Part shown: piece after piece, positions 1 through 10,072 of the stretch
Numbering within the stretch: position 1 is the stretch's first letter
Layout: every line of letters begins with the position of its first letter
Assembly (NCBI GenBank): GCA_948329525.1
Contig: CAOJBM010000003.1
Location: forward strand, 1 to 45,427
Origin: an uncultured Mycoplasmatota bacterium
Lineage (GTDB): Bacteria; Bacillota_I; Bacilli_A; RF39; UBA660
Length of the DNA: 45,427 bases
Direction of reading: 5' to 3'
Position numbers and translations under genes: made by a program
The notes under the pieces: model-generated
Told to the model about the DNA's origin: nothing
What the model saw: the letters and a program-made list of their open reading frames with translations, nothing else
Databases searched by the model: none

Positions 1-3000
1 TAACTTGCTTATATGTTCTTATACCATCTAAATTATAACTATATGTTACTTTAGTGCTTCCATCTTTATATTCTCTTAATGATCTTCCATCTATCCAAGA
101 CAATGTTTTACTTCCTATTGTTATTGGATTTCCGATTTCATCATATGTGATTTCTTCATCATTGAATTTAGTTAATAAATCTTGCCAGTTACTATCTCCA
201 TATGTATATGTATCTTCTTTTGTTAAAGTTTCTGTATTATAAGTGTATTGTTTCTTAGATAAAATATTTCCATAGTTATCATATGTATATTTAGTTGTAA
301 TATTAGTTATTAAGTTATCATCTTGAATTAATTGGGATTGCTCATCATAGGTATATTTATTAACTATAGTATTTCCTTTATATACTTCTGTAATATTACC
401 TAACTTATCATAAGTATACTTATAAATTGTTCCATTATCATCTACTTCTCTTACTATATTTGATGTCTTATATCCATGTGATAGATACTTATACTTTGTT
501 TTATAGGAACCATTTATATTGTTTTCTTTTATTCTTCCTAGTTCATCATAAATATAATTAAAGTTTTTATTATTAACACTTATTTTTGTTATTACTGATT
601 CTGTATTATATTCATAATTATAAACATATTTAAGTTCATTATTATAACTCTCTTCTTTCATAGTTACATTATTATCTTTGTTGTAATCAAACTTTAAATT
701 ATACCATCTATAATTATAACTACTTAATCTATCAGCAAAATCATATTCATATAGATAATAACTATAAGGAATTTCTATTTTTGATAATCTTCCTAAGTTA
801 TCATAATATAAATTATATGTCCCATATTTTTTCTTAACTGTACTTAGCCTATCTAAATCATCATAACTATAAGATATTTCGTTATTATTACCATAAGTTA
901 CTTTTGACAAGTTACCATTATGTTCTAAATATGTATTAGTTACTAAAGTATTATCATTTATTTTTATATCTGATATTCTATTAAATTCATTATAGTTAAA
1001 TAAATAATTATCTGTTCCATAGATTATTTTAGATAAATTATTATTATCATACTCATAATTTACTTCTTGTTGCCCTTTTGTAATTTTCTTAACTCTTAGT
1101 TTTTCATCATAAGTATAGTTTGTAGATACATCATCTGGATTAGTTAAAATATTAATTAAACCATTAGTTGTATTAATATCATATGTTGTTTTATTATCTA
1201 CACTATCGGTAACTGATTTAATAAATCTACCATCTTGAGTATACTCAGCGCTTGATTCAATAACTTCTTTAAAATTTGCTTGTTCAAAAACAAATTGTTG
1301 ATTTACGTTATTTTCTTCATATGGTGATAAAACAATATTATTACTATCATTTATAGTTATAGCATTATTGCCATATTTAATTGTATAACTATTATTATCA
1401 TTTCTTTCTATAGCAAATAAATTATCATTATCACCATATTCTAAAGTAATATTATTATCTCTTGCTTTAAGATAATAATTATTTAATATAGTATTTTGAA
1501 TCTTAACATTATTTCCTGATAATAGTAAGTTAAATTTTTCTATAGAACAATCACAGTCTTTTACTTTAAGTGATTTATCATCATTTATATATAAATACTT
1601 ATTAGTACCTATTGCTCTTATAAAGTATGGAATATTATACTCTAATGCACTATTAGTTTTTCTATTACTTATGATTGTCTTAATAGGATTGTTTAAAGAG
1701 TCATAAACAATTCGATTATTTATTCCTGTAGGAGAAGTTGAATTAATTACTCTATCTATTATCTTTTTATCATATTCAAATGAGTAATTAGATCCCATTG
1801 GTGTCATAGCATCTAGTAATTGATTGTTTTTATTATACTTCATTGTTGATTTAGCTTTATTTAAGTCTATTGTTGAAATAAGATTACCATTTTCATCATA
1901 AGAGAAGGAATATGCTTCAATATCTTTAAATAAAGAGAAATTTGTTATCCAACAATCATTAGCATTACCAAAACTATTGATACGAAGTCCTATTTTATTA
2001 TAATTTGTTTGTGCAGAAAAGTTAGCTGAAAAGAATTGCCAATTATCATTTCCAACATTAAAGTATGTTATAGGGACACAAGTACCATCAATAAATTCAT
2101 CATCATAATAGAAAAATACAGTTGCCCAAATAATACCTTTCATCATACTCATTCCAATACCTGTAGCATCTATCCCATTATTCTTATACCAGAAAGATAA
2201 GTTATATGTATCTCCTTCTTTTCCACTAGTTTCAATTATTTTTTCTACAGATACATCGGCACTTGGAGCAGAATGGATTTTTAGAGCTTTTTTCTTAGAA
2301 GATATATTATCTACGGAATAACTTCCATTTTCGCCAGATACAGTTATATCCCAACTATTAGTACCATTTATAAAACTACTATTGTCTACTAAATTATAAT
2401 AATTTGCTACAGCACCATATTCAAGTTGTATATCATCAACAATAAATTCACTACCTGTAAAATTATCAAAAAATATTAATATAGAATTATTATCTATTGT
2501 ATTATTAACTGTTACTTGAAATCTTTGATAAGTATTAGTTAAAGTATAGGTATGATAACTTGTAATATAGTCTCCTGATGCCATTATTCTAAATTTCCCA
2601 TTTCCTTTAGCATAAAAACTAAAAGTTGCTTTGCGATTTACTTTTTCTAATTTATGTTTATAACTTATCTCACATTGTTCAAAAACATCAAATTTTATCG
2701 CATATTTTCCAGTTCTAGCATCTGTAGTAAAAGTTGTGTTTATTCCCCCTGAGTTAAATGGGTTTGTTCGATTTTCAAAAGAAGAATCACTTATTAAATT
2801 ATCAACATATTTAACTAATGCTTTATCTGTAGTCATTTTATTAACGTCATTTTGATTTTCCCCAAAAATGTAAGTTTTTCCATAAGCATTAGTTAAATCT
2901 TGAGTTTCATCTAAATTAGTTGTTCCTACAACATTACCATTATTATTAAACATGTATGTGTTAATAACTCCTAATCTATCCACAACTTTAGTATCACTAA

Positions 3001-5029
3001 CATTATACTTAAAAGTTAAATAATTACCAACAGTTCCTGTTGTTGATATTTCTTCTACTCTTGACACTTTACTTTCTTTATCACTAGTATAGTAATATTT
3101 AATTGCTATACCATTTGGATTTTTAATACTTTCTATCAAATTATTAGTTGTATAAGTTATTTCTTCAGTATTAGAAAGACTTGTAATACTAGTTATTAGG
3201 TTATTTGTTAAGTTTACTTCTGTAGTTTTATATGGACTTGTAAAAGTTATTTTACTAGTGTCATAAGTAATAGTTATTTCTTTATTTGAAGCATCTATTA
3301 CTTTAGATATTCTATTACTTGAATCATATTCTACTTTTATAGCACTTCCATTAGTTTCTTTTACTTCTATTAAATAATATGAGTTATTACGAGCTACAAA
3401 TTTAGAAGTATTACCATCTTTATCTGTTAGAATATAATTACTATCTACAAGGCACAATTTAAGTCCTAGACCATCTTCATCTTTATATACTTTTTCTTCT
3501 TCATCATAATAGAAATAATGCACTGTCCCTGTATCATTAGTGTATGACAAAGGAAAGTTTTCTAAGCCTGTATTGTTTATAAATTGCATTAAATTAGGTT
3601 TAATACCTAGTCCACATCCATAATCATGATCTAACGAAATATCATAAGTATTATAAACTAAACTAAGACTTGCTGGGAATATCCCTCCAACTGTATTAGC
3701 TACATCAAATATTGTTGTTAAATTACCAGTATAATTGGCTATACTTGATGTTCCAAAAAAGTGTTGTTGGGTTGAATAAGAAAAATAATCTGTTACTCCA
3801 TTATAATTTTTATATGTAATTACAAGTGCAGGTTTAGCATCATTATTAGAATATTTATTCGATGCAAATTGGATAGGAGGAAAATTAGTTATTTCTCTTT
3901 CTATCTCTTGCTTTAACATAATTCCATAATTATTACTAGGATTATTATACCAATCTTTTAAAGCACTCGTAATATTTGCAGTATTTTCTTCTATATAGTT
4001 ATCTCCAATATGTCTAGCTGCTTCAAAATAATCTACTAAATCACTATTATATTTATCATTCATATTATTCCATTTAGCAGTTGCTTCTGTCCAATCAGTA
4101 TTAATGCGATGAACTGATATTTTTGGTATATCCTCATTAGAACCACTTGTTACTGGAAATGCAAATAAATTTAAAGTAGCATTAACAAGTTTATAACTAG
4201 CAGGTATTATGGGTAAGTTAAATTTTAATAAACTTCGATAAATTGTACTACCACTAACTCCAACATTTAAATAATTTAAATTATAAGTAGTAGTATTTTC
4301 ATCGCCATTAAAGATGAATGTATTTATTAAGTTTTTAACGTTATCTTCAACATTGATAGTTGGGTCGATAATTACTGGAAATTTTCTTGCTTTCGCATTA
4401 GCCCATTTTTTGTCAAAAGTAATTGTTAATTCATAATGCTTAGTTAATTTTTTTAAAGAATATTTAACATTTTCACTTATTTCATTATTAGCATCAAACA
4501 TATAAGGTTTGGTAATTTTATATACTTCTTTTTTATTTTCAATAATACTTATTGTATTATCTTTATTTAATTTTAATTTTAATTCCGTATTAATAATAAA
4601 GGTTATATTATCAATATTTACTTTTTTGTTAATTATTATAGATTCTTTTAATTTATTGGGATGAATTTCATAATCTAAATCAATATTAGAAAGTACTTTT
4701 TGAAAATTAATATTTTCAATATTCTTTGCTTTCTTTACTCTACTTATTTTATAATCTGTCATCAAAGGATTAGAATCCTTTAATGACATCTTTAATTTAT
4801 TAGATATATTTATACAATTGTCTATTGTATTAAATTCTACTAGAAAGTTATTAGCTTTATTTTTATAACCTTTTTTTGTTTTAATTAATGAATTATCTAT
4901 TTCTTTATATTCATTATTTTCTAGATAATGTATATTTTCTTTATATACTTGAACTTTAATAGTTTTATCTTCTTGTAAGAAATGTTTACTATTTAAAGTT
5001 CTAAATTCTTTTAGTTCTATTCCTTCCAT
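1..5029 (-). CDS. Rhs/YD-repeat polymorphic-toxin-type protein, first 1676 codons; the 3' end runs off the left edge
   Basis: Absent from the ORF track because no stop codon lies in the window. ATG at 5029-5027 with GAGGT 6 nt upstream. The frame reads open down to position 2, and no stop-delimited fragment is listed on the track. Translation starts MEGIELKEFRTLNSKHF. It contains FPVIIDPTINVED...SLLKFNLPIIP...ISVHRINTDWTEATAKWNN (DNRLRE-type domain, about 3900-4380), two beta-sandwich CBM-like segments (about 1930-2790) and a ricin-B-like segment ending QQFVFEQ (about 1270-1640). There are many YD repeats: YTYDKLGNITE, YTYDNYGNILS, ITYDEIGNPITIG, YSYNLDGIRTYKQV. Confidence 0.9.
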   Translation of the reverse strand, partial: MEGIELKEFRTLNSKHFLQEDKTIKVQVYKENIHYLENNEYKEIDNSLIKTKKGYKNKANNFLVEFNTIDNCINISNKLKMSLKDSNPLMTDYKISRVKKAKNIENINFQKVLSNIDLDYEIHPNKLKESIIINKKVNIDNITFIINTELKLKLNKDNTISIIENKKEVYKITKPYMFDANNEISENVKYSLKKLTKHYELTITFDKKWANAKARKFPVIIDPTINVEDNVKNLINTFIFNGDENTTTYNLNYLNVGVSGSTIYRSLLKFNLPIIPASYKLVNATLNLFAFPVTSGSNEDIPKISVHRINTDWTEATAKWNNMNDKYNSDLVDYFEAARHIGDNYIEENTANITSALKDWYNNPSNNYGIMLKQEIEREITNFPPIQFASNKYSNNDAKPALVITYKNYNGVTDYFSYSTQQHFFGTSSIANYTGNLTTIFDVANTVGGIFPASLSLVYNTYDISLDHDYGCGLGIKPNLMQFINNTGLENFPLSYTNDTGTVHYFYYDEEEKVYKDEDGLGLKLCLVDSNYILTDKDGNTSKFVARNNSYYLIEVKETNGSAIKVEYDSSNRISKVIDASNKEITITYDTSKITFTSPYKTTEVNLTNNLITSITSLSNTEEITYTTNNLIESIKNPNGIAIKYYYTSDKESKVSRVEEISTTGTVGNYLTFKYNVSDTKVVDRLGVINTYMFNNNGNVVGTTNLDETQDLTNAYGKTYIFGENQNDVNKMTTDKALVKYVDNLISDSSFENRTNPFNSGGINTTFTTDARTGKYAIKFDVFEQCEISYKHKLEKVNRKATFSFYAKGNGKFRIMASGDYITSYHTYTLTNTYQRFQVTVNNTIDNNSILIFFDNFTGSEFIVDDIQLEYGAVANYYNLVDNSSFINGTNSWDITVSGENGSYSVDNISSKKKALKIHSAPSADVSVEKIIETSGKEGDTYNLSFWYKNNGIDATGIGMSMMKGIIWATVFFYYDDEFIDGTCVPITYFNVGNDNWQFFSANFSAQTNYNKIGLRINSFGNANDCWITNFSLFKDIEAYSFSYDENGNLISTIDLNKAKSTMKYNKNNQLLDAMTPMGSNYSFEYDKKIIDRVINSTSPTGINNRIVYDSLNNPIKTIISNRKTNSALEYNIPYFIRAIGTNKYLYINDDKSLKVKDCDCSIEKFNLLLSGNNVKIQNTILNNYYLKARDNNITLEYGDNDNLFAIERNDNNSYTIKYGNNAITINDSNNIVLSPYEENNVNQQFVFEQANFKEVIESSAEYTQDGRFIKSVTDSVDNKTTYDINTTNGLINILTNPDDVSTNYTYDEKLRVKKITKGQQEVNYEYDNNNLSKIIYGTDNYLFNYNEFNRISDIKINDNTLVTNTYLEHNGNLSKVTYGNNNEISYSYDDLDRLSTVKKKYGTYNLYYDNLGRLSKIEIPYSYYLYEYDFADRLSSYNYRWYNLKFDYNKDNNVTMKEESYNNELKYVYNYEYNTESVITKISVNNKNFNYIYDELGRIKENNINGSYKTKYKYLSHGYKTSNIVREVDDNGTIYKYTYDKLGNITEVYKGNTIVNKYTYDEQSQLIQDDNLITNITTKYTYDNYGNILSKKQYTYNTETLTKEDTYTYGDSNWQDLLTKFNDEEITYDEIGNPITIGSKTLSWIDGRSLREYKDGSTKVTYSYNLDGIRTYKQV

Positions 5030-5044
5030 GATACTACCTCATTT

Positions 5045-5767
5045 TTAACTGATTCTTTGCCAAATATAAACTGCAAAATATGGAGGTAAGACAGATGTTA
5101 CACCTGAAGTTAGCTGTCCACATTCTCCAGTATTAACATTAGAGGTCATTCCATAAGTTGTTCCTCCTAGAGCTGTTCCATATGATTCCCAATTATTTCT
5201 TGCTGTTTGACCACCTGAAACTGCTTTTGAATTATTAGAGAGAAAACTAGCACTAATTTCTCTTGTTATAAATGAAGCATTGCCATAAAATAAATCTGCC
5301 CAAGCCGAATCACCTAAAGAATGGGTATGGTTTCCTTCTGGATGAACATGCGATGGAACAGTATGACTATGAGTTGTCGTACCACCACTAGTATTAACTG
5401 GATAAGATGAACTTGCTCCGATTAAAAATTTATCTGTTATTTGTATCCAACTACCACCAAATAAAGTTTCTGGATTTACATTACTTACACTTAAATAGAT
5501 TGCACCAACTGGATATATTTGATTGAAATCTATATTTCCTCCAGGATTAGATGAACCATTATTAGTAGTAATAGTATTACAACTAATATTTCCATTATCA
5601 TCAATACTAAATTTATTGTTTTTTGAAGTTATACAATTTACATTTATATTATTTGCTTCAATATCTAGTCCTTCACTAGTTTCTGTAAAATATTTATCAT
5701 AATTTGAACTATTATTAGTTCCTTCTTGTACTACACTTGGAAGTTCTTTTTCATCAATATTTGCCAT
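5045..5767 (-). CDS. phage tail-fibre-tip / tail-collar-like protein (240 aa), probably co-transcribed with the Rhs gene
   Basis: ORF track. AAGGAG lies 8 nt before the ATG. The stop is 15 nt upstream of the Rhs ATG. The motif IYPVGAIYLSVSNVNPETLFGGSWIQITDKFL and the C-terminal PPYFAVYIWQR resemble, from memory, Firmicute phage baseplate/fibre proteins. Three HxH motifs are present (HSHTVPSHVHPEGNHTH). No signal peptide. Confidence 0.6.
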   Translation of the reverse strand: MANIDEKELPSVVQEGTNNSSNYDKYFTETSEGLDIEANNINVNCITSKNNKFSIDDNGNISCNTITTNNGSSNPGGNIDFNQIYPVGAIYLSVSNVNPETLFGGSWIQITDKFLIGASSSYPVNTSGGTTTHSHTVPSHVHPEGNHTHSLGDSAWADLFYGNASFITREISASFLSNNSKAVSGGQTARNNWESYGTALGGTTYGMTSNVNTGECGQLTSGVTSVLPPYFAVYIWQRIS

Positions 5768-5963
5768 TTTTTTTACTCCTTACTTCTTTTTTATTTTTTT
5801 ATTTAATAAAATTTACATAGTTACTACTTTTTTACATCACTTGTCCTTTCTTGAAAAAACTATATAACATTTTTAAAAAAATGTTTATAACTTTTTCGGT
5901 TAGGGCATTTTTTATTTTAAATAGGGACTTTAAATGTTATAACTCAACTTTTCGGTCACATGA

Positions 5964-5989
5964 AAAAGATAATCATTAATGATTATCTT
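5964..5989. repeat. perfect 26-bp AT-rich palindrome AAAGATAATCATTAATGATTATCTTT in the Rhs-operon upstream region
   Basis: Read directly; the 13-nt arms are exact reverse complements. It contains GATAAT/ATTATC hexamers reminiscent of Fur-type operators but with even symmetry. Confidence 0.6.
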
Positions 5990-6153
5990 TCAGTTATTAA
6001 CAATTAGTATTCTTATTATATTAGAATATCTTCATAATTTCTATTGCTATTAAAATATACAACCTTCTTATTAATAAAGTTTTTTTACATTATAATTAAT
6101 ATTCTCATAATCATCAGTTATAGGAATGTAACTTAATTAACTTTTAAAACTAT

Positions 6154-6178
6154 TTAAAAACAGGTGTTTTAACCTGTT
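6154..6178 (-). terminator. intrinsic terminator after the secreted-protein gene
   Basis: Minus strand reads AACAGGT-taaaac-ACCTGTT followed by TTTTTAAA, immediately after the stop at 6186. Confidence 0.7.
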
Positions 6179-6185
6179 AATAATA

Positions 6186-6962
6186 TTACCAATTACATTT
6201 TATACTAGTAGATACAGATGGTGTAGTATCAAAATATGAACTTGTACCTTGATGAGTAAGTCCTGATATACCTATAGTATACTTATTAGCATCAGTAGAT
6301 GATATTTTTTTAATAGCATGAGCATAATCTGCCACAGCTAGTTGTTCTATTATAGTAGCATCTGATACATTTTTAGCTATATCTAAAGTAAGAGTATTTT
6401 TTATTGAACTTACATTAGAAGCTGAAGGTAATTGAAATACTGCTCCTGCTCCTGTAGATGTGTTTTTTCTAACAAAATCTTTAAGAGTAGAGCAAACACC
6501 TGTAGTTAAACAATAATCAGTTTGATAATTAACATTTACTGCTTTAACTGATTGATAAAATCCTATAGTAATAATATCACTGCTTCTTACAGAAGGAATG
6601 TTTTTCCAATTTAATACTGCTCTATATCTATAAGCAGAACCATTTTCTAATATGCTAACTGTCAATTTTTTATAATTTGTTTCAACAATATTACTAGAAC
6701 CATATGGTTGTATTTCATCTTTATTTTCTACACTATTATATTCTTCTTTAGTTATTTCTGTTGTATAAGAAAGAATAATTTTGTTGTCATTAATTTCATT
6801 GTTAAAAGTACTAACATTCGATATAACATTTGTAGTCTTAAAATATTTCTCATTTGATGAGATTAACTTATATTCTTCTTCATTTAAAGATTCATTATTA
6901 GATGCGTTAGCAATAAATGGACATATTAAGAATAATATCAAAACTAACATTTTTCTTTTCAT
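6186..6962 (-). CDS. secreted hypothetical protein (258 aa)
   Basis: ORF track. N-terminal Sec-type signal MKRKMLVLILFLICPFIANA. AAAGGAGG RBS and a TGATATAAT extended -10 lie upstream. No domain recognised. Confidence 0.7.
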   Translation of the reverse strand: MKRKMLVLILFLICPFIANASNNESLNEEEYKLISSNEKYFKTTNVISNVSTFNNEINDNKIILSYTTEITKEEYNSVENKDEIQPYGSSNIVETNYKKLTVSILENGSAYRYRAVLNWKNIPSVRSSDIITIGFYQSVKAVNVNYQTDYCLTTGVCSTLKDFVRKNTSTGAGAVFQLPSASNVSSIKNTLTLDIAKNVSDATIIEQLAVADYAHAIKKISSTDANKYTIGISGLTHQGTSSYFDTTPSVSTSIKCNW

Positions 6963-7017
6963 AAATTTTTTCCTCCTTTCTCGAAAAAAATTATATCAAA
7001 AAAACAAATATTTTTTT

Positions 7018-7054
7018 CTAACCAAAAAAGTTAGTTACTAACTTTTTTGGTTAG
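7018..7054. repeat. 18-bp-arm perfect inverted repeat CTAACCAAAAAAGTTAGT / ACTAACTTTTTTGGTTAG overlapping the XRE gene stop
   Basis: Read directly. TTAGTTACTAAC also occurs as a direct repeat at 7031-7042 and 7051-7062. No U-tract follows on the minus strand, so it is not a textbook terminator. Confidence 0.6.
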
Positions 7055-7878
7055 TTACTAACAAATTTATTGTTACTAAACACTTTTTCAAAATTCAAAT
7101 TAATTTTTATTGTTTGATATTCATTATTACTATCTACGTAAATTATCTCTATAATAAAATTGTCTAAATCAGCCTCACAAATTTTATAATCATCTTTAGA
7201 CTGAGATGATATATCAATTTTTATTTTATCTAAATAGCCATTTAATCTTGAAGTTTCACTAATAGTAAAATGAGATAAATCGCCTGTCGAAAAAATAATT
7301 GTTTTATCTATTAATAATTTAAATTCCATTGCTTTTACTTTAATTTCTTTATCAGTTCCTGTATATATGTCATTATAACTTAAATCATTTATCGTAATTA
7401 TACTATTATCAGGATTAAATATAATTCTTCCATTTAAGTCAAATCTTTCATCTGTACTAAAAATATTATAAATTTTTATTTGGTTATAATATGTAATATA
7501 ATATAATGATAATAATATTCCTATAATACTTATAAAAATAATTGAAATAGTAAGTAAAATTTTTTTAAATTTATTTTTAGCTTTCTTCTCATAATATTTA
7601 ATTCCATTAAATATTACTTGACTTTTTTCTTTAATAATTTCAGAAGAATTACTATCATTATTTTTCTTAGTTTTTTCTCCGAGTAATAATTCATCTGTTG
7701 TAATACCTAAAACTTTGCATAAATCTATCATTATCGAAACATTTGGCATATTAACACCTCGTTCCCATTTAGAAACAGTTTGAGAAGAGACGTTAATCAT
7801 TTTTCCTAATTGTTCTTGCGTTAACTTTTTTTCATTTCTTAATTCTGCAATAAACCTTCCTATTTTTACTAAATCCAT
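7051..7878 (-). CDS. membrane-anchored XRE-family HTH regulator (275 aa)
   Basis: N-terminal Cro/C1 HTH (LTQEQLGKMINVSSQTVSKWERG), then one TM segment (ILLTISIIFISIIGILLSLYYITYY) and a roughly 150-aa extracytoplasmic part. AAAGGAG RBS. Confidence 0.85.
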   Translation of the reverse strand: MDLVKIGRFIAELRNEKKLTQEQLGKMINVSSQTVSKWERGVNMPNVSIMIDLCKVLGITTDELLLGEKTKKNNDSNSSEIIKEKSQVIFNGIKYYEKKAKNKFKKILLTISIIFISIIGILLSLYYITYYNQIKIYNIFSTDERFDLNGRIIFNPDNSIITINDLSYNDIYTGTDKEIKVKAMEFKLLIDKTIIFSTGDLSHFTISETSRLNGYLDKIKIDISSQSKDDYKICEADLDNFIIEIIYVDSNNEYQTIKINLNFEKVFSNNKFVSN

Positions 7879-7968
7879 ACTACATACTCCTTTAGCATAA
7901 ATATAATAACATATTTTTTATTTAACCAAACTTTTTCTTTAAAGCATAATGACAATTAATAGTAAAGA

Positions 7969-9222
7969 TTAATTTCCAAACATTTGAGCATAGTAAGTTT
8001 TAGTACCTAATTTATAATAACCGACACCTAATTTTGTAAAATTAGTACTAATCATATTAGCATAGTGACCTGGAGAATTTCTCCATCCCTCTGTAACTTT
8101 TTGTGGTTTATAATAAGAATAATTATATCCATAAGCAATATTTTCCCCTAAAGCATAATAACTATTAATTCCAAGCTCTTTTAAAACAGTAAAACAATCA
8201 CTACCATTTGGTCTCGTATGAGAAAATTTATCAGCATAAGCCATTTCAATTGCTCTAATAGTAGCTGCTAAACTAAGGTTATTGTCTAAAGAAAGTGGTG
8301 GAGCTCCAACTTCCATACGGTAATTATTAGTATACATTAATACTTCATTATAAATATTTGCATTAGTACCTAATAAAGAAGAAGCTTCTCCTTTCATACT
8401 ATTCGTATCGCCATTAAAATCCTTATAATCATATTCGTATTTACTGCGGCCATTAGAATAAGTCGTTTTAGTTACTTTTGTTCCATATACAAAACTTTCT
8501 TCAACTTTTGGGGGTTCTTCTTGTGAGGTTTCTGTAGTTTCTTTTTGTGCTTCAGTATTCGGCTTTTGATTAGTTTGATTATTTTTATTGGAATCAGTCT
8601 TATTATTTGTATTTTTATTAGTACTTGTATTCTTTTTAGGTTCCTCTTTCTTTTGAATAATTAGTTTCGTACTTTGTTCTTCACTATTTCCACTATTATC
8701 TTTTGCTACAATTACAATGTCATAGGTTCCTTCTTTAACTTGAATAGTCATTTCTTCTTCTTTAAAAGATAAAACACATTCCTCTTTGCTATTATCAATA
8801 CAACTTTCGACAAAGTCTTTTACTTCGTAAGTTTCAGTTTCATTTATAGTAACTTCTTTAAGTTTCAACTCAGGTTTAACTTCATCTTTTATTTCTAAAG
8901 TACATACTTCTTCTCCATCAATTAATACTTTATATGTACCTATTTTTAATTCTGTTAATTCTACTTCTTCATCATTATCATTTTTATATGTTAATTCACC
9001 TGTTATTTTTCCTGTAATTATATAATCTTCAATACTTGGCAAGCCATCTTCTAAACTGATAGTTAGTTTATCTTTATACTCTATTTTTGAACTATTTTGT
9101 TCTTCTTTATTATCATCTATTTTTTTATTATTTCTAGTAACTCCAAAAGCAAGACCTACTCCTAAAAAAATTACTACTATAGAAATAGCAATTAAACCAA
9201 TAATTTTTTTCTTTTCACTCAT
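7969..9222 (-). CDS. membrane-anchored CAP/SCP (YkwD-like) domain protein with an Ig-like middle region
   Basis: TM anchor IIGLIAISIVVIFLGVGLAFGV. C-terminal CAP motifs (GENIAYGY...WRNSPGHYANM). The track start at 9231 is a GTG inside the AGGTGAG RBS, so the start was moved to the ATG at 9222. Confidence 0.8.
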   Translation of the reverse strand: MSEKKKIIGLIAISIVVIFLGVGLAFGVTRNNKKIDDNKEEQNSSKIEYKDKLTISLEDGLPSIEDYIITGKITGELTYKNDNDEEVELTELKIGTYKVLIDGEEVCTLEIKDEVKPELKLKEVTINETETYEVKDFVESCIDNSKEECVLSFKEEEMTIQVKEGTYDIVIVAKDNSGNSEEQSTKLIIQKKEEPKKNTSTNKNTNNKTDSNKNNQTNQKPNTEAQKETTETSQEEPPKVEESFVYGTKVTKTTYSNGRSKYEYDYKDFNGDTNSMKGEASSLLGTNANIYNEVLMYTNNYRMEVGAPPLSLDNNLSLAATIRAIEMAYADKFSHTRPNGSDCFTVLKELGINSYYALGENIAYGYNYSYYKPQKVTEGWRNSPGHYANMISTNFTKLGVGYYKLGTKTYYAQMFGN

Positions 9223-9283
9223 AATTCTCACCTTTTACCTTTACTAAATTATATTACAAAGAAATAAAGAGAACAACATTTTA

Positions 9284-10072
9284 TTAATTTTTATTTAACT
9301 CATTTGTTAAATCTATAAAGAAAGAAAGGGGTAATTCTTCAGCTCTATTTTGCAAAGTACAATTATATTTATTTAAGATCGCTTCTACTATTTTTAAATC
9401 ATAACTTTTTAAATTATTTCGAATATTTTTTCTTTTCATGGCAAAACTATCTTTTACTAATTTTATAAATTTTTCTCTATTTAAAACTTTATTATTTCTA
9501 TTTATTTTACTCATCTTAATAACAGCACTATCTACTTTTGGCATTGGTTTAAACGATTCTTTATTAACTGTAAATAAATATTCTATATTGTAATCATAAG
9601 TAAGTAATACTGTTAAAGCTCCATATTCTTTAGTTCGAGGTAGAGCTGAAAGTCTTTCTGCTACCTCTTTTTGAACTAAAAAGACCATATCTTGAACATT
9701 TAAATTACTACTTGTTATTTTTTCGATTATTGGGGTAGTTATGTAATAAGGTATATTAGCTATAAAGTAGATATTATCATAAGTATTACTTTCTATTTCA
9801 TCTAAATTAGCTTGTAAAAAATCTTGATAAATTACTTTACAATCATCATTTTCTAAAAGATTTAAATACTTTGTTAATCTTTCATCTACTTCATAACAAA
9901 TTACTATTCCTTTTTTTTTCTTTAAATACTTAGTTAAAGCTCCCTCTCCAGGACCAATCTCAATAATTAAATCATTTTCATTTGTTTCTATAGAACTAGC
10001 AATTTTCTTTAAAACTTGTTCATCTTGCAAAAAATTCTGTCCTAAACTTTTTTTATGTTTAAACTTTTCCAT
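9284..10072 (-). CDS. rsmA: 16S rRNA (adenine1518/1519-N6)-dimethyltransferase
   Basis: SLGQNFL, EIGPGEGALT and NIPYYITTPI motifs. Synteny with the yabE-like and tatD genes. The track start GTG lies within the AGGTGA RBS, so the ATG at 10072 was used. Confidence 0.92.
   Translation of the reverse strand: MEKFKHKKSLGQNFLQDEQVLKKIASSIETNENDLIIEIGPGEGALTKYLKKKKGIVICYEVDERLTKYLNLLENDDCKVIYQDFLQANLDEIESNTYDNIYFIANIPYYITTPIIEKITSSNLNVQDMVFLVQKEVAERLSALPRTKEYGALTVLLTYDYNIEYLFTVNKESFKPMPKVDSAVIKMSKINRNNKVLNREKFIKLVKDSFAMKRKNIRNNLKSYDLKIVEAILNKYNCTLQNRAEELPLSFFIDLTNELNKN

Follow-up and report, generated by a model that had tools for sequence, protein, structure and literature searches.

Which cells a Gram-positive Rhs toxin selects, and how it reaches them, is largely an open question: in the known cases the toxin relies either on Sec export and wall anchoring or on a type VII secretion system. 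The stretch of DNA analyzed here (the window, 45,427 nucleotides from an uncultured Mycoplasmatota bacterium) raises this question in a particular form. It carries a gene for a phage-fibre-tip-like protein directly ahead of an Rhs/YD polymorphic toxin gene, and it must be asked whether the fibre is a partner of the toxin, as a first-pass annotation had suggested, or stands there for some other reason. The fibre gene (5045..5767, minus strand, stop codon included), taken from the ORF list and its translation, starts with ATG and encodes 240 amino acids. The Rhs gene (1..5029, minus strand) was recognized in translation by its RHS_repeat and YD repeats; its ATG lies at 5029-5027, and the frame is open for 1676 codons until the left edge of the window truncates the gene, so that the 5′ part is present. 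Since the minus strand carries both genes, upstream in gene direction lies to the right. The spacer between them (5030..5044, minus strand) is exactly 15 nt, as first reported, and reads AAATGAGGTAGTATC on the minus strand; its GAGGT ribosome-binding site lies 6 nt ahead of the Rhs ATG. In relatives the median spacer is 31 nt. A terminator scan of 4700-7100 found no terminator-like hairpin, again in line with the initial reading. The intergenic region upstream of the fibre gene (5768..6185, minus strand) is the presumed promoter region and contains an imperfect palindrome at 5855-5896. A promoter scan returned 20 sites against 19.6 expected, and is uninformative in such AT-rich DNA (25% GC), and Rfam gave no match on positions 1-10,000. 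The base composition of the fibre-Rhs pair does not set it apart from its flanks, for which reason a recent foreign origin as an island was no longer considered.

The motifs for which the fibre had been noticed were all found in the 240-aa protein: IYPVGAIYLSVSNVNPETLFGGSWIQI at residues 84-110, the HxH motifs HSH, HVH, and HTH at residues 133, 140, and 147, and the ending PPYFAVYIWQR at residues 228-238. Residues 81-239 (5051..5527, minus strand) matched positions 2-139 of the 139 of the Pfam family Gp10_C (PF21939) with 62.1 bits (cut-off 27) and an E-value of 1.5e-16. The first-pass annotation had suggested Collar (PF07484) as the family, but this gave no match at E <= 0.01, and Gp10_C was the sole family found on the fibre. 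A profile of the fibre family matched the C-terminal domain of T4 gp10 in the PDB (2FKK, E 3.5e-10), as well as 7Z47 (E 7e-11) and gp10 in 5HX2/5IV5 (E 7e-9); the family profile was needed, since a phmmer search of PDB sequences with the single protein returned nothing. The tip is also 36% identical to the C-terminal 141 aa of the antireceptor of Lactobacillus delbrueckii phage LL-Ku, and the PHROG matches of the fibre are tail proteins. The suspected likeness to fibre tips was thus borne out at the level of sequence profiles. A word-indexed search recovered 135 homologs, and the family profile was matched by 30,289 representative proteins. Against the orthologue in the related, syntenic locus L001, dN/dS in the structured parts of the fibre was 0.14-0.22. 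The fibre ORF is real, far beyond chance, and is under functional constraint. Two AlphaFold2 runs on the monomer gave models with pLDDT of 52 and 64 and a low-confidence tip, which is what would be expected of an intertwined trimer. The only meaningful Foldseek matches obtained with these low-confidence models were gp10 chains, with TM-scores of only 0.26-0.38; because of these poor models and scores, the fold of the fibre is backed by sequence and not by structure.

The Rhs protein is predicted to be a polymorphic toxin. Its orthologues have about 1990-2100 aa (1994 aa in L001). The part encoded in the window begins with a DUF7948 domain (residues 17-224; 4358..4981, minus strand; Pfam, 33.9 bits, cut-off 27), followed by a CBM96/DNRLRE domain (residues 235-406; 3812..4327, minus strand; Pfam CBM96, E 4.8e-9; NCBIfam DNRLRE_dom, 82.6 bits). 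A carbohydrate-binding-module-like mosaic region lies at about residues 690-890 (2360..2962, minus strand); it was delimited by a drop in identity between L001 and the related locus L005, to 62-73% where the surrounding segment is 98-100% identical, and residues 798-875 gave a weak GTA_spike_fiber match. The repeats matched RHS_repeat (E 6.5e-18) and the TIGR01643 YD repeat, and in relatives TEN_YD-shell. The window stops before the C-terminus; among complete relatives the boundary motif Y..NNP[IV]...D..G is present in 36 of 47, and the toxin domains of relatives, which are 142-217 aa long, make up at least 21 groups. Orphan toxin fragments were found 3′ of the Rhs gene in L001 and in other loci. 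A profile search of the PDB with the Rhs N-terminus found nothing, and a homolog search with residues 1-230 recovered just 3 fragments.

Judged by the hydropathy of the N-termini, none of the 67 fibres or of the Rhs proteins paired with them carries a signal peptide. The highest 15-residue Kyte-Doolittle average within the first 70 aa of the window Rhs was -0.4, with no signal peptide ahead of DUF7948; in the 67 relatives it was at most 0.89, whereas the signal peptide of a neighboring secreted protein reached 2.64. The window Rhs had no Pfam match to LysM, LXG and WXG domains were absent from its N-terminus (which consists only of DUF7948 and CBM96), and no recurrent cluster of FtsK/EssC-type ATPases was found among the neighbors of the pair.

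Conservation of the pairing was surveyed from both sides. Fibre matches in GTDB numbered more than 522, the best 80 of which were examined, and paired loci were counted where at least 1.5 kb of sequence was available downstream of the fibre (n=74). Among these loci from the best 80, an Rhs N-terminus followed the fibre in 66 of 74, at no more than 100 nt in 48, and was absent in 8. In the reverse survey, seeded with the Rhs N-terminus in metagenomes, the fibre was upstream in 37 of 44 loci and missing in 7. Independent gene calls upheld the pairing. Reciprocal adjacency is kept in more than 100 loci of uncultured gut bacteria, at 30-50% protein identity. The pairing of fibre and Rhs genes is therefore conserved and reciprocal, and the proposal that relatives share it held.

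Alignment of the family divided the fibre into parts with different histories. Residues 23-80 (YDKYFTETSEGLDIEANNINVNCITSKNNKFSIDDNGNISCNTITTN...; 5528..5701, minus strand) form a conserved N segment, a candidate docking or trimerization segment, while residues 131-225 (5093..5377, minus strand) form a hypervariable tip insert, defined by pairwise identity and by cassette exchange, that holds the three HxH motifs. Mean pairwise identity in this insert was 0.17, against 0.42-0.65 in the other fibre segments. Within it, HVH (140-142) is the HxH motif conserved across the family, with H140 and H142 at least 90% conserved. The N-segment motif was found in 70 of 88 genome loci, against 1 of 80 IMG/VR viral loci; the single viral case among the best 80, L089, has a DNRLRE-type neighbor. 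The other IMG/VR N-segment matches, which started at query residue 34-41, were discarded as BLAST extensions into an unrelated shaft. Matches including the N segment were accompanied by Rhs in 66 cases and lacked it in 4, whereas the tip-only matches had none with and 4 without. The N segment is thus a signature of Rhs-linked fibres, which ordinary phage fibres lack. Its pairwise identity correlates with that of every Rhs segment (rho 0.40-0.64), best with the mosaic region, while collar, tip, and C-end gave values of about 0-0.2; co-inheritance alone could be a sufficient cause of this correlated divergence.

The tip behaves differently. L001 and L005 are 98-100% identical over ~5 kb, and their tips just 38-48%: otherwise near-identical strains have exchanged the tip as a cassette. 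Tandem fibre paralogues have near-identical N segments and different tips. At L024, the tip of the short fibre is 68% identical to that of the 649-aa fibre of the adjacent prophage, which has no N segment. Compared with L001, dS was 0.32 in the N segment and 0.8-1.2 in the tip domain. These patterns show modular evolution of the fibre, with a constant N segment and a variable tip.

Two further genes upstream of the pair recur in relatives. One encodes a secreted 258-aa protein (cluster c4; 6186..6962, minus strand) with a signal-peptide-like N-terminus and no family match in Pfam or NCBIfam; the other, in cluster c2 (7051..7878, minus strand; HTH_3, E 3.8e-17), encodes a candidate regulator that combines an Xre-type HTH with a membrane segment, a transmembrane stretch being present in the cluster representative. 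The HTH protein occurs in 17 of 67 paired loci and the secreted protein in 14 of 67, always adjoining it. PADLOC returned no match for the fibre, the Rhs protein, or the secreted protein, and only generic HTH matches for the regulator. Phage structural genes were found neither in the window, as far as it is annotated, nor within 10 kb on either side of the pair in L001, as expected from the report that no other phage gene lies nearby. In L001, the 4 kb past the Rhs stop are free of any tail module and contain small membrane ORFs, ORFs of immunity type, and an orphan fragment of an Rhs C-terminus; a prophage tail to the left of the window had been considered a possibility.

Lysis genes accompany the pair in many relatives. 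A same-strand endolysin gene is present in 27 of 67 paired loci, mostly at 5-530 nt when it lies upstream of the pair and at 0.7-2.7 kb when downstream, and in about 40% of relatives the pair has an endolysin or holin gene as its neighbor. The annotations are PHROG endolysins, the TIGR01593 toxin-secretion holin (97.8 bits; 7 of 67 paired loci), and Phage_holin_4_1. A small sigma-70-like protein near the pair in relatives scored 39 bits, just under the family cut-off of 42.9, and some loci have an ImmA-like/HTH regulator. No holin, endolysin, or sigma-like gene was found within 10 kb in the window lineage. At L024, L028, and L046 the pair begins 5-6 nt past a prophage endolysin gene; the description of the fibre as lying outside any prophage thus applies to the window lineage and fails for some relatives. 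In these prophage-linked loci the pair follows the lysis cassette, where cargo genes sit, outside the tail module.

On balance, we favor the reading that the 240-aa fibre and the Rhs protein belong together as the two subunits of a single antibacterial toxin module, in which the fibre would be a phage-derived targeting subunit and would probably set which cells the Rhs toxin binds. We infer the physical complex, receptor binding, the release route, and killing from comparative genomics. The Rhs protein (~2000 aa) would be the payload container, built in the order DUF7948, CBM96/DNRLRE, carbohydrate-binding-module-like modules, YD shell, and polymorphic C-terminal toxin. The N segment of the fibre would be the constant part that stays with Rhs and probably docks or trimerizes on it, and the Gp10_C tip (residues 81-240) the exchangeable part, binding a cell-surface glycopolymer or protein and so determining the target cells. 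Specificity would be re-programmed by swaps of tip cassettes, also with the tail fibres of resident phages, and by tandem alternative fibre genes. In relatives where a holin/endolysin cassette adjoins the pair, in some cases together with a sigma-like factor or regulator of its own, the complex would probably leave by holin-dependent export or lysis. Against this reading stand the lack of lysis genes near the pair in the window lineage, the loci in which one partner is missing, and the carbohydrate-binding modules of Rhs, which could provide targeting without the fibre. The first-pass annotation had spoken of a contact-dependent delivery or target-recognition module; comparative genomics suggests the targeting part, and contact dependence is not favored over a soluble toxin. 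The reading predicts that the docking segment is residues 23-80 of the fibre and the specificity segment residues 131-225, and that natural tip-swap pairs such as L001/L005 should differ in target range. More tentatively, and with somewhat less than even confidence, we propose a widespread, previously unreported class of protein bacteriocins in uncultured low-GC gut Bacilli, with an Rhs capsule, a detachable phage-derived trimeric tip, docking by the N segment, cassette exchange, and release by lysis cassettes. Uncultured gut Bacilli with small genomes and little other known weaponry commonly carry the module, so it may influence how strains compete with one another in animal guts.

The fibre might instead serve the producer's own surface. 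It could grip the producer's wall glycopolymers and hold the signal-less Rhs there, giving contact-dependent inhibition; it would then substitute for the LysM/wall-binding repeats of WapA, and tip diversity would follow the surface type of the producer. The known Gram-positive Rhs/WapA proteins are wall-anchored (PMC12704120), the Rhs protein here has DNRLRE/CBM96 and neither LysM nor a signal peptide, and the likeness of the L024 tip to the fibre of its resident prophage implies that the receptor is present on the producer's lineage. Such own-type binding, however, fits the killing of close kin equally well, tandem alternative tips before one Rhs gene fit a broader target range better, and the adjacent lysis cassettes suggest release rather than display. 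Close kin are the usual targets of polymorphic toxins. We regard both the display and the wall-repeat substitution as unlikely.

Still less probable is that the fibre acts in Rhs assembly, stabilization, or export, as a chaperone or adaptor of the Eag/DUF1795 type, with no role in target recognition. The tight coupling across a 15-nt spacer, the co-inheritance of the N segment with Rhs, and one genome in which two different Rhs genes each follow the same fibre would all suit such a factor; it would not be expected to have a cassette-swapped, hypervariable domain of the receptor-binding kind that phage tail fibres also have, nor to occur in tandem alternative copies. We consider it very improbable that the pair belongs to a phage particle, as a structural component or as cargo, with Rhs on the virion and the fibre as a normal tail fibre, and that the window copy is a prophage remnant. 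The tip domain is indeed common in phage fibres, and three pairs directly follow a prophage endolysin gene, but these occupy the cargo position described above. Among the best 80 IMG/VR viral loci, moreover, Rhs lay beside the tip protein in none, one partial case apart; the window lineage has no phage genes within 10 kb, and both genes are intact and under purifying selection in many lineages. That a stray phage gene is by mere chance the neighbor of an unrelated Rhs gene, for which nothing speaks beyond the mobility of both families, is already refuted by the reciprocal conservation of the pair.

Several known systems share parts with this locus. Holin-dependent release loci, such as C. difficile TcdE/TcdR and C. 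perfringens UviA/UviB-BCN5, likewise combine a large signal-less toxin gene with a holin, and many relatives of the pair have the TIGR01593 holin, an endolysin, and the sigma-70-like protein; in contrast, the window lineage lacks those genes within 10 kb, and the toxin is an Rhs protein rather than a glucosyltransferase. In Tc (ABC) toxins the Rhs shell forms the toxin capsule (TcB/TcC), whereas here there is no TcA-like injector and no SpvB or beta-propeller N-terminus. R- and F-type pyocins and diffocins are bacteriocins aimed by phage receptor-binding fibres; they differ from the present loci, whose neighborhoods lack sheath, tube, and baseplate genes. The fibre itself is homologous over residues 81-240 to T4 gp10 and to the LL-H/LL-Ku antireceptor (Gp71), sharing the start IYPVGxIY..NPxTLFGGxW, the central HxH, the variable insert, and the ending PPYxxVYxWxR. 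Here, however, the domain is free-standing (about 200-240 aa), the N segment replaces the long shaft and baseplate-attachment region, and the gene is encoded with an Rhs toxin outside a tail module. In phage LL-H, the homologous Gp71 determines adsorption to lipoteichoic acid (PMC3870949).

WapA and the other Sec-dependent Rhs proteins of B. subtilis and S. suis resemble the Rhs protein in the YD shell, the DNRLRE/CBM96 domain near the N-terminus, and the C-terminal toxin, which is polymorphic and accompanied by immunity and orphan modules (PMC12704120). The present protein differs in having no signal peptide, no LysM or wall-anchor repeats, and no SecF-like or sortase partner, and in having a fibre-tip partner gene. 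No account of an Rhs toxin with a separately encoded fibre-tip partner turned up in a non-exhaustive literature search, and Zhang et al. (2012) listed tail-fibre repeats only as parts within toxin polypeptides. The likeness to the Streptomyces umbrella toxins (UmbA/UmbB/UmbC) is one of concept only: a polymorphic toxin scaffold with separate binders. The diversified binders of umbrella toxins recognize cell-surface glycopolymers and confer a narrow target range (PMC11062931, PMC13274773). The two systems appear to have no homologous parts, since Pfam gave only the Rhs-type architecture (DUF7948, CBM96, RHS repeats) and Gp10_C for the present one, which has an Rhs shell instead of ALF repeats and a phage Gp10_C tip instead of a lectin on the trypsin-like UmbA; its hosts are low-GC gut Bacilli, and its complex is a putative one. 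If the favored reading is true, an Rhs toxin would gain its specificity in a new way, from a separately encoded phage receptor-binding tip that can be swapped, and its targeting would be directly linked to the arms race that phages and hosts wage over surface glycopolymers. The module would then stand beside umbrella toxins and tailocins as their Gram-positive counterpart, a ready-made modular retargeting system and a handle for narrow-spectrum antibacterials in which changing the tip would change the target.

The fibre gene lies on the minus strand and codes for 240 aa (5045-5767), according to the ORF list and its translation, and its product contains all the motifs quoted in the first-pass annotation: IYPVGAIYLSVSNVNPETLFGGSWIQI at residues 84-110, HSH, HVH, and HTH at 133, 140, and 147, and PPYFAVYIWQR at 228-238. 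Its TAA stop codon (5047-5045) is followed on the same strand by a spacer of 15 nt (5030-5044; AAATGAGGTAGTATC in minus-strand reading), which carries a GAGGT ribosome-binding site, and directly afterwards by the ATG of the Rhs frame, open over 1676 codons as far as the left window edge. The length claimed for this gap was thus verified, and so was the claim that no terminator separates both genes, since a hairpin scan of 4700-7100 revealed no terminator-like hairpin. The GC content of the window is 25%, and the base composition of the pair does not deviate from that of its flanks. At ~34,000 the GC skew changes sign, and there the ORFs, so far on the minus strand, turn to the plus strand; the chromosomal replication origin thus appears to lie inside the window, with the pair ~29 kb from this putative origin and co-oriented with replication.

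Fibre residues 81-239 matched Pfam PF21939 (Gp10_C) with 62.1 bits (cut-off 27), and further matches were obtained to PHROG tail-protein families. A profile built from 32 family members matched two solved structures, the C-terminal domain of T4 gp10 (2FKK; E 3.5e-10) and the phage structural protein 7Z47 (E 7e-11). In isolated phages, the best matches were to the C-terminal 141 residues of the "antireceptor" carried by Lactobacillus delbrueckii phages, LL-Ku among them (36% identity); the homolog of this protein in LL-H, Gp71, sets adsorption to lipoteichoic acid (PMC3870949). These profile matches substantiated the likeness to a fibre tip proposed in the first-pass annotation; the Collar family (PF07484), also proposed there, gave no match to the fibre. 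Two AlphaFold monomer models of the fibre were poor (pLDDT 52 and 64), and Foldseek recovered with them gp10 chains only, at TM-scores of 0.26-0.38, so the Gp10_C assignment rests on the sequence profiles. With 30,289 representative proteins matching at E <= 1e-3, the tip superfamily is very large. Two giant proteins, P0128 (2002 aa) and P0232 (4832 aa), contain four and 12 stretches matching the tip profile, respectively, and appear to be multi-tip proteins.

In order of genes, close relatives (58-85% identity) are syntenic with the window: HTH regulator, secreted 259-aa protein, fibre, Rhs protein of 1994 aa, immunity-like ORF, and orphan Rhs C-terminal fragments, with no phage genes within 10 kb of the pair. 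When one genome per GTDB species was scanned with the fibre, more than 522 relatives were found, of which the best 80 loci were examined; nearly all of these 80 came from metagenome-assembled uncultured gut Bacilli or "Tenericutes". A homolog of the Rhs N-terminus followed the fibre gene in 66 of the 74 loci among them with at least 1.5 kb of downstream sequence, and the gap was shorter than 100 nt in 48 of these 66 (median 31 nt). Conversely, when an alignment of the Rhs N-terminal domain was used as query, giving 50 independent metagenome loci, a fibre homolog lay directly upstream in 37 of the 44 loci with at least 700 nt of upstream sequence. The pairing is therefore conserved in relatives in both directions. 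Independent gene calls gave the same arrangement, and one genome has the identical fibre in front of two different Rhs genes. In 9-11 loci (L018, L025, L042, L050, L053, L072, L074, L081, and L088) an ORF of ~110-135 aa (cluster c8) stands between fibre and Rhs; by eye it resembles a coiled coil whose end is helix-turn-helix-like, it had no Pfam or PHROG match, and it probably also occupies gaps of 320-780 nt in some metagenome loci. Contigs of loci L009, L012, L021, L038, L039, and L052 are of low GC and Bacilli-like but bear the titles "uncultured Muribaculaceae" or "Bacteroides helcogenes", which probably reflects mislabelled or contaminated metagenome bins.

Mean pairwise identity among Rhs-linked fibres was 0.42 in the N segment (residues 23-80), 0.53 at the start of the tip domain (81-130), 0.17 in the tip insert (131-225), and 0.65 at the C-terminal end (226-240); of the three HxH motifs, HVH (140-142) alone is kept across the family. 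Matches including the N segment had an Rhs neighbor in 66 of 70 loci, against none of the four tip-only matches. A strict N-segment motif occurred in 70 of the 88 genome loci and in 34 of the 50 Rhs-seeded ones, but in a single one of the 80 IMG/VR viral loci, which has a DNRLRE-type neighbor; ordinary phage fibres have the tip and lack the N segment. At the sequence level, the N segment is a marker of an Rhs-linked fibre subfamily. Some fibres form a second size class (350-420 aa) and bear an N-terminal extension of ~160-185 aa without family match; immediately before tandem fibre arrays, a related domain is also encoded on its own, in an ORF of 105-125 aa (L038, 9428-11580; L018, 9449-10591; upstream ORFs of L057, L058, L068, and L071).

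The Rhs frame codes for an Rhs/YD protein in which domain searches identified an N-terminal DUF7948 (residues 17-224) and CBM96/DNRLRE (235-406). No signal peptide was found at its N-terminus; it differs from WapA, a Gram-positive Rhs protein (PMC12704120), in lacking signal peptide and LysM, and from T7SS-type Gram-positive Rhs proteins in lacking an LXG domain and T7SS neighbors. Complete relatives have about 1940-2170 aa (median 2060), and 36 of 47 contain the boundary motif Y..NNP[IV]...D..G, past which the C-terminal toxin region extends for 142-217 aa; these regions fall into at least 21 similarity groups. Membrane-like hydrophobic stretches, located directly past the boundary motif or at the extreme end of the toxin region, were present in 20 of 36 such regions (the syntenic relative L001 and 35 relatives), which suggests toxins acting on membranes or a helix for membrane insertion. 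Downstream of the Rhs gene lie orphan toxin fragments and small ORFs. By this architecture, the Rhs relatives are predicted to be typical polymorphic toxins.

Pairwise identity of the N segment correlated with that of all Rhs parts (Spearman 0.40-0.64), whereas for the remaining fibre values were ~0-0.2. The best correlation (rho 0.64) was with a carbohydrate-binding-module-like mosaic patch of Rhs (2360-2962; residues ~690-890), where the two strains L001 and L005 share 62-73% and the window and L005 85-93% identity; this patch could be a second specificity module or docking site. L001 and L005 are 98-100% identical in DNA over regulator, secreted protein, first half of the fibre, and ~2 kb of Rhs, but identity falls to 38-48% exactly at the tip (window 5480-5060); judged from the sequences, this is a clean cassette swap. 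In L024, the pair begins 6 nt past the endolysin gene of a siphovirus-type prophage, and the tip of its short fibre is 68% identical to that of this prophage's 649-aa tail fibre, which has no N segment. In several genomes two to four tandem fibre genes with near-identical N segments and different tips precede a single Rhs gene, which looks like an orphan-cassette store for tips, paralleling the orphan Rhs toxin fragments. Such tandem loci are L057, L065, L068, L071, L038, L076, and L081; the second fibre copy of L081 is broken, with N-segment fragment and tip in separate frames. Relative to L001, dN/dS of the fibre was 0.14-0.22 in structured parts, indicating that the gene is under constraint, and dS was 0.32 in the N segment and 0.8-1.2 in the tip domain, a contrast that fits separate histories.

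No signal peptide was found in fibre or Rhs in the 67 pairs examined. A same-strand endolysin gene was present in 27 of the 67 paired loci, mostly 5-530 nt before the fibre when upstream and otherwise 0.7-2.7 kb past Rhs. Other recurrent neighbors were the TIGR01593 "toxin secretion/phage lysis" holin (seven loci), small phage-type membrane proteins (20 loci), a sigma-70-like protein of ~160 aa (19 loci; 39 bits, just below cut-off), and a regulator in which an ImmA-like protease motif (HExxH) is fused to an Xre-type HTH domain (seven loci; family assigned by eye, no NCBIfam match). In many lineages, these neighbors point to release that depends on a holin or on lysis; in the window lineage, endolysin, holin, phage-type membrane, sigma-like, and fused-regulator genes are absent within 10 kb. 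The only recurrent neighbors there are an HTH-membrane protein (Xre-HTH plus membrane segment; 7051-7878) and the secreted 258-aa protein (6186-6962; no family match), which accompany the module in 17 and 14 of the 67 paired loci, respectively, and may form a sensing or regulatory pair for it. They always occur together, upstream or downstream of the module in distant loci. Located ~90-130 nt ahead of the fibre start codon, an imperfect palindrome (AAAAACTATATAACATTTTT / AAAAATGTTTATAACTTTTT; 5855-5896) may serve the neighboring HTH protein as operator, or may be due to chance at 25% GC. An ABC exporter-like gene (580-700 aa) occurs in eight of 67 loci, in several of them (L032, L053, L059, and L068) directly upstream of the fibre or a few genes off, and may represent coincidental synteny or an alternative export route.

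The best-supported reading is that fibre and Rhs constitute a two-part toxin. The Rhs capsule would carry the polymorphic toxin, a phage-derived trimeric tip protein would accompany it through its constant N segment, and the exchangeable tip would bind a surface receptor and so set the target. As the main rival reading, the tip would hold Rhs on the producer's own wall; both readings fit, because a tip shared with a resident prophage would recognize the producer's surface type, which is also that of its closest competitors. A role of the fibre as a chaperone only fits poorly, since its receptor-binding domain is swapped and hypervariable, and so does the pair as virion cargo, being absent, apart from one partial case, from the 80 best IMG/VR viral loci. 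Chance adjacency is excluded.

Every part of the module belongs to a known family, and we found no published description of the pairing, the Rhs-specific N segment, the tip exchange with phages, or the link to lysis cassettes. Complex formation, binding, release, and killing stand as predictions. In concept, the module comes closest to the umbrella toxin particles of Streptomyces, with which it shares no homologous components; there, a polymorphic toxin is directed by diversified lectins that are encoded separately (PMC11062931, PMC13274773).
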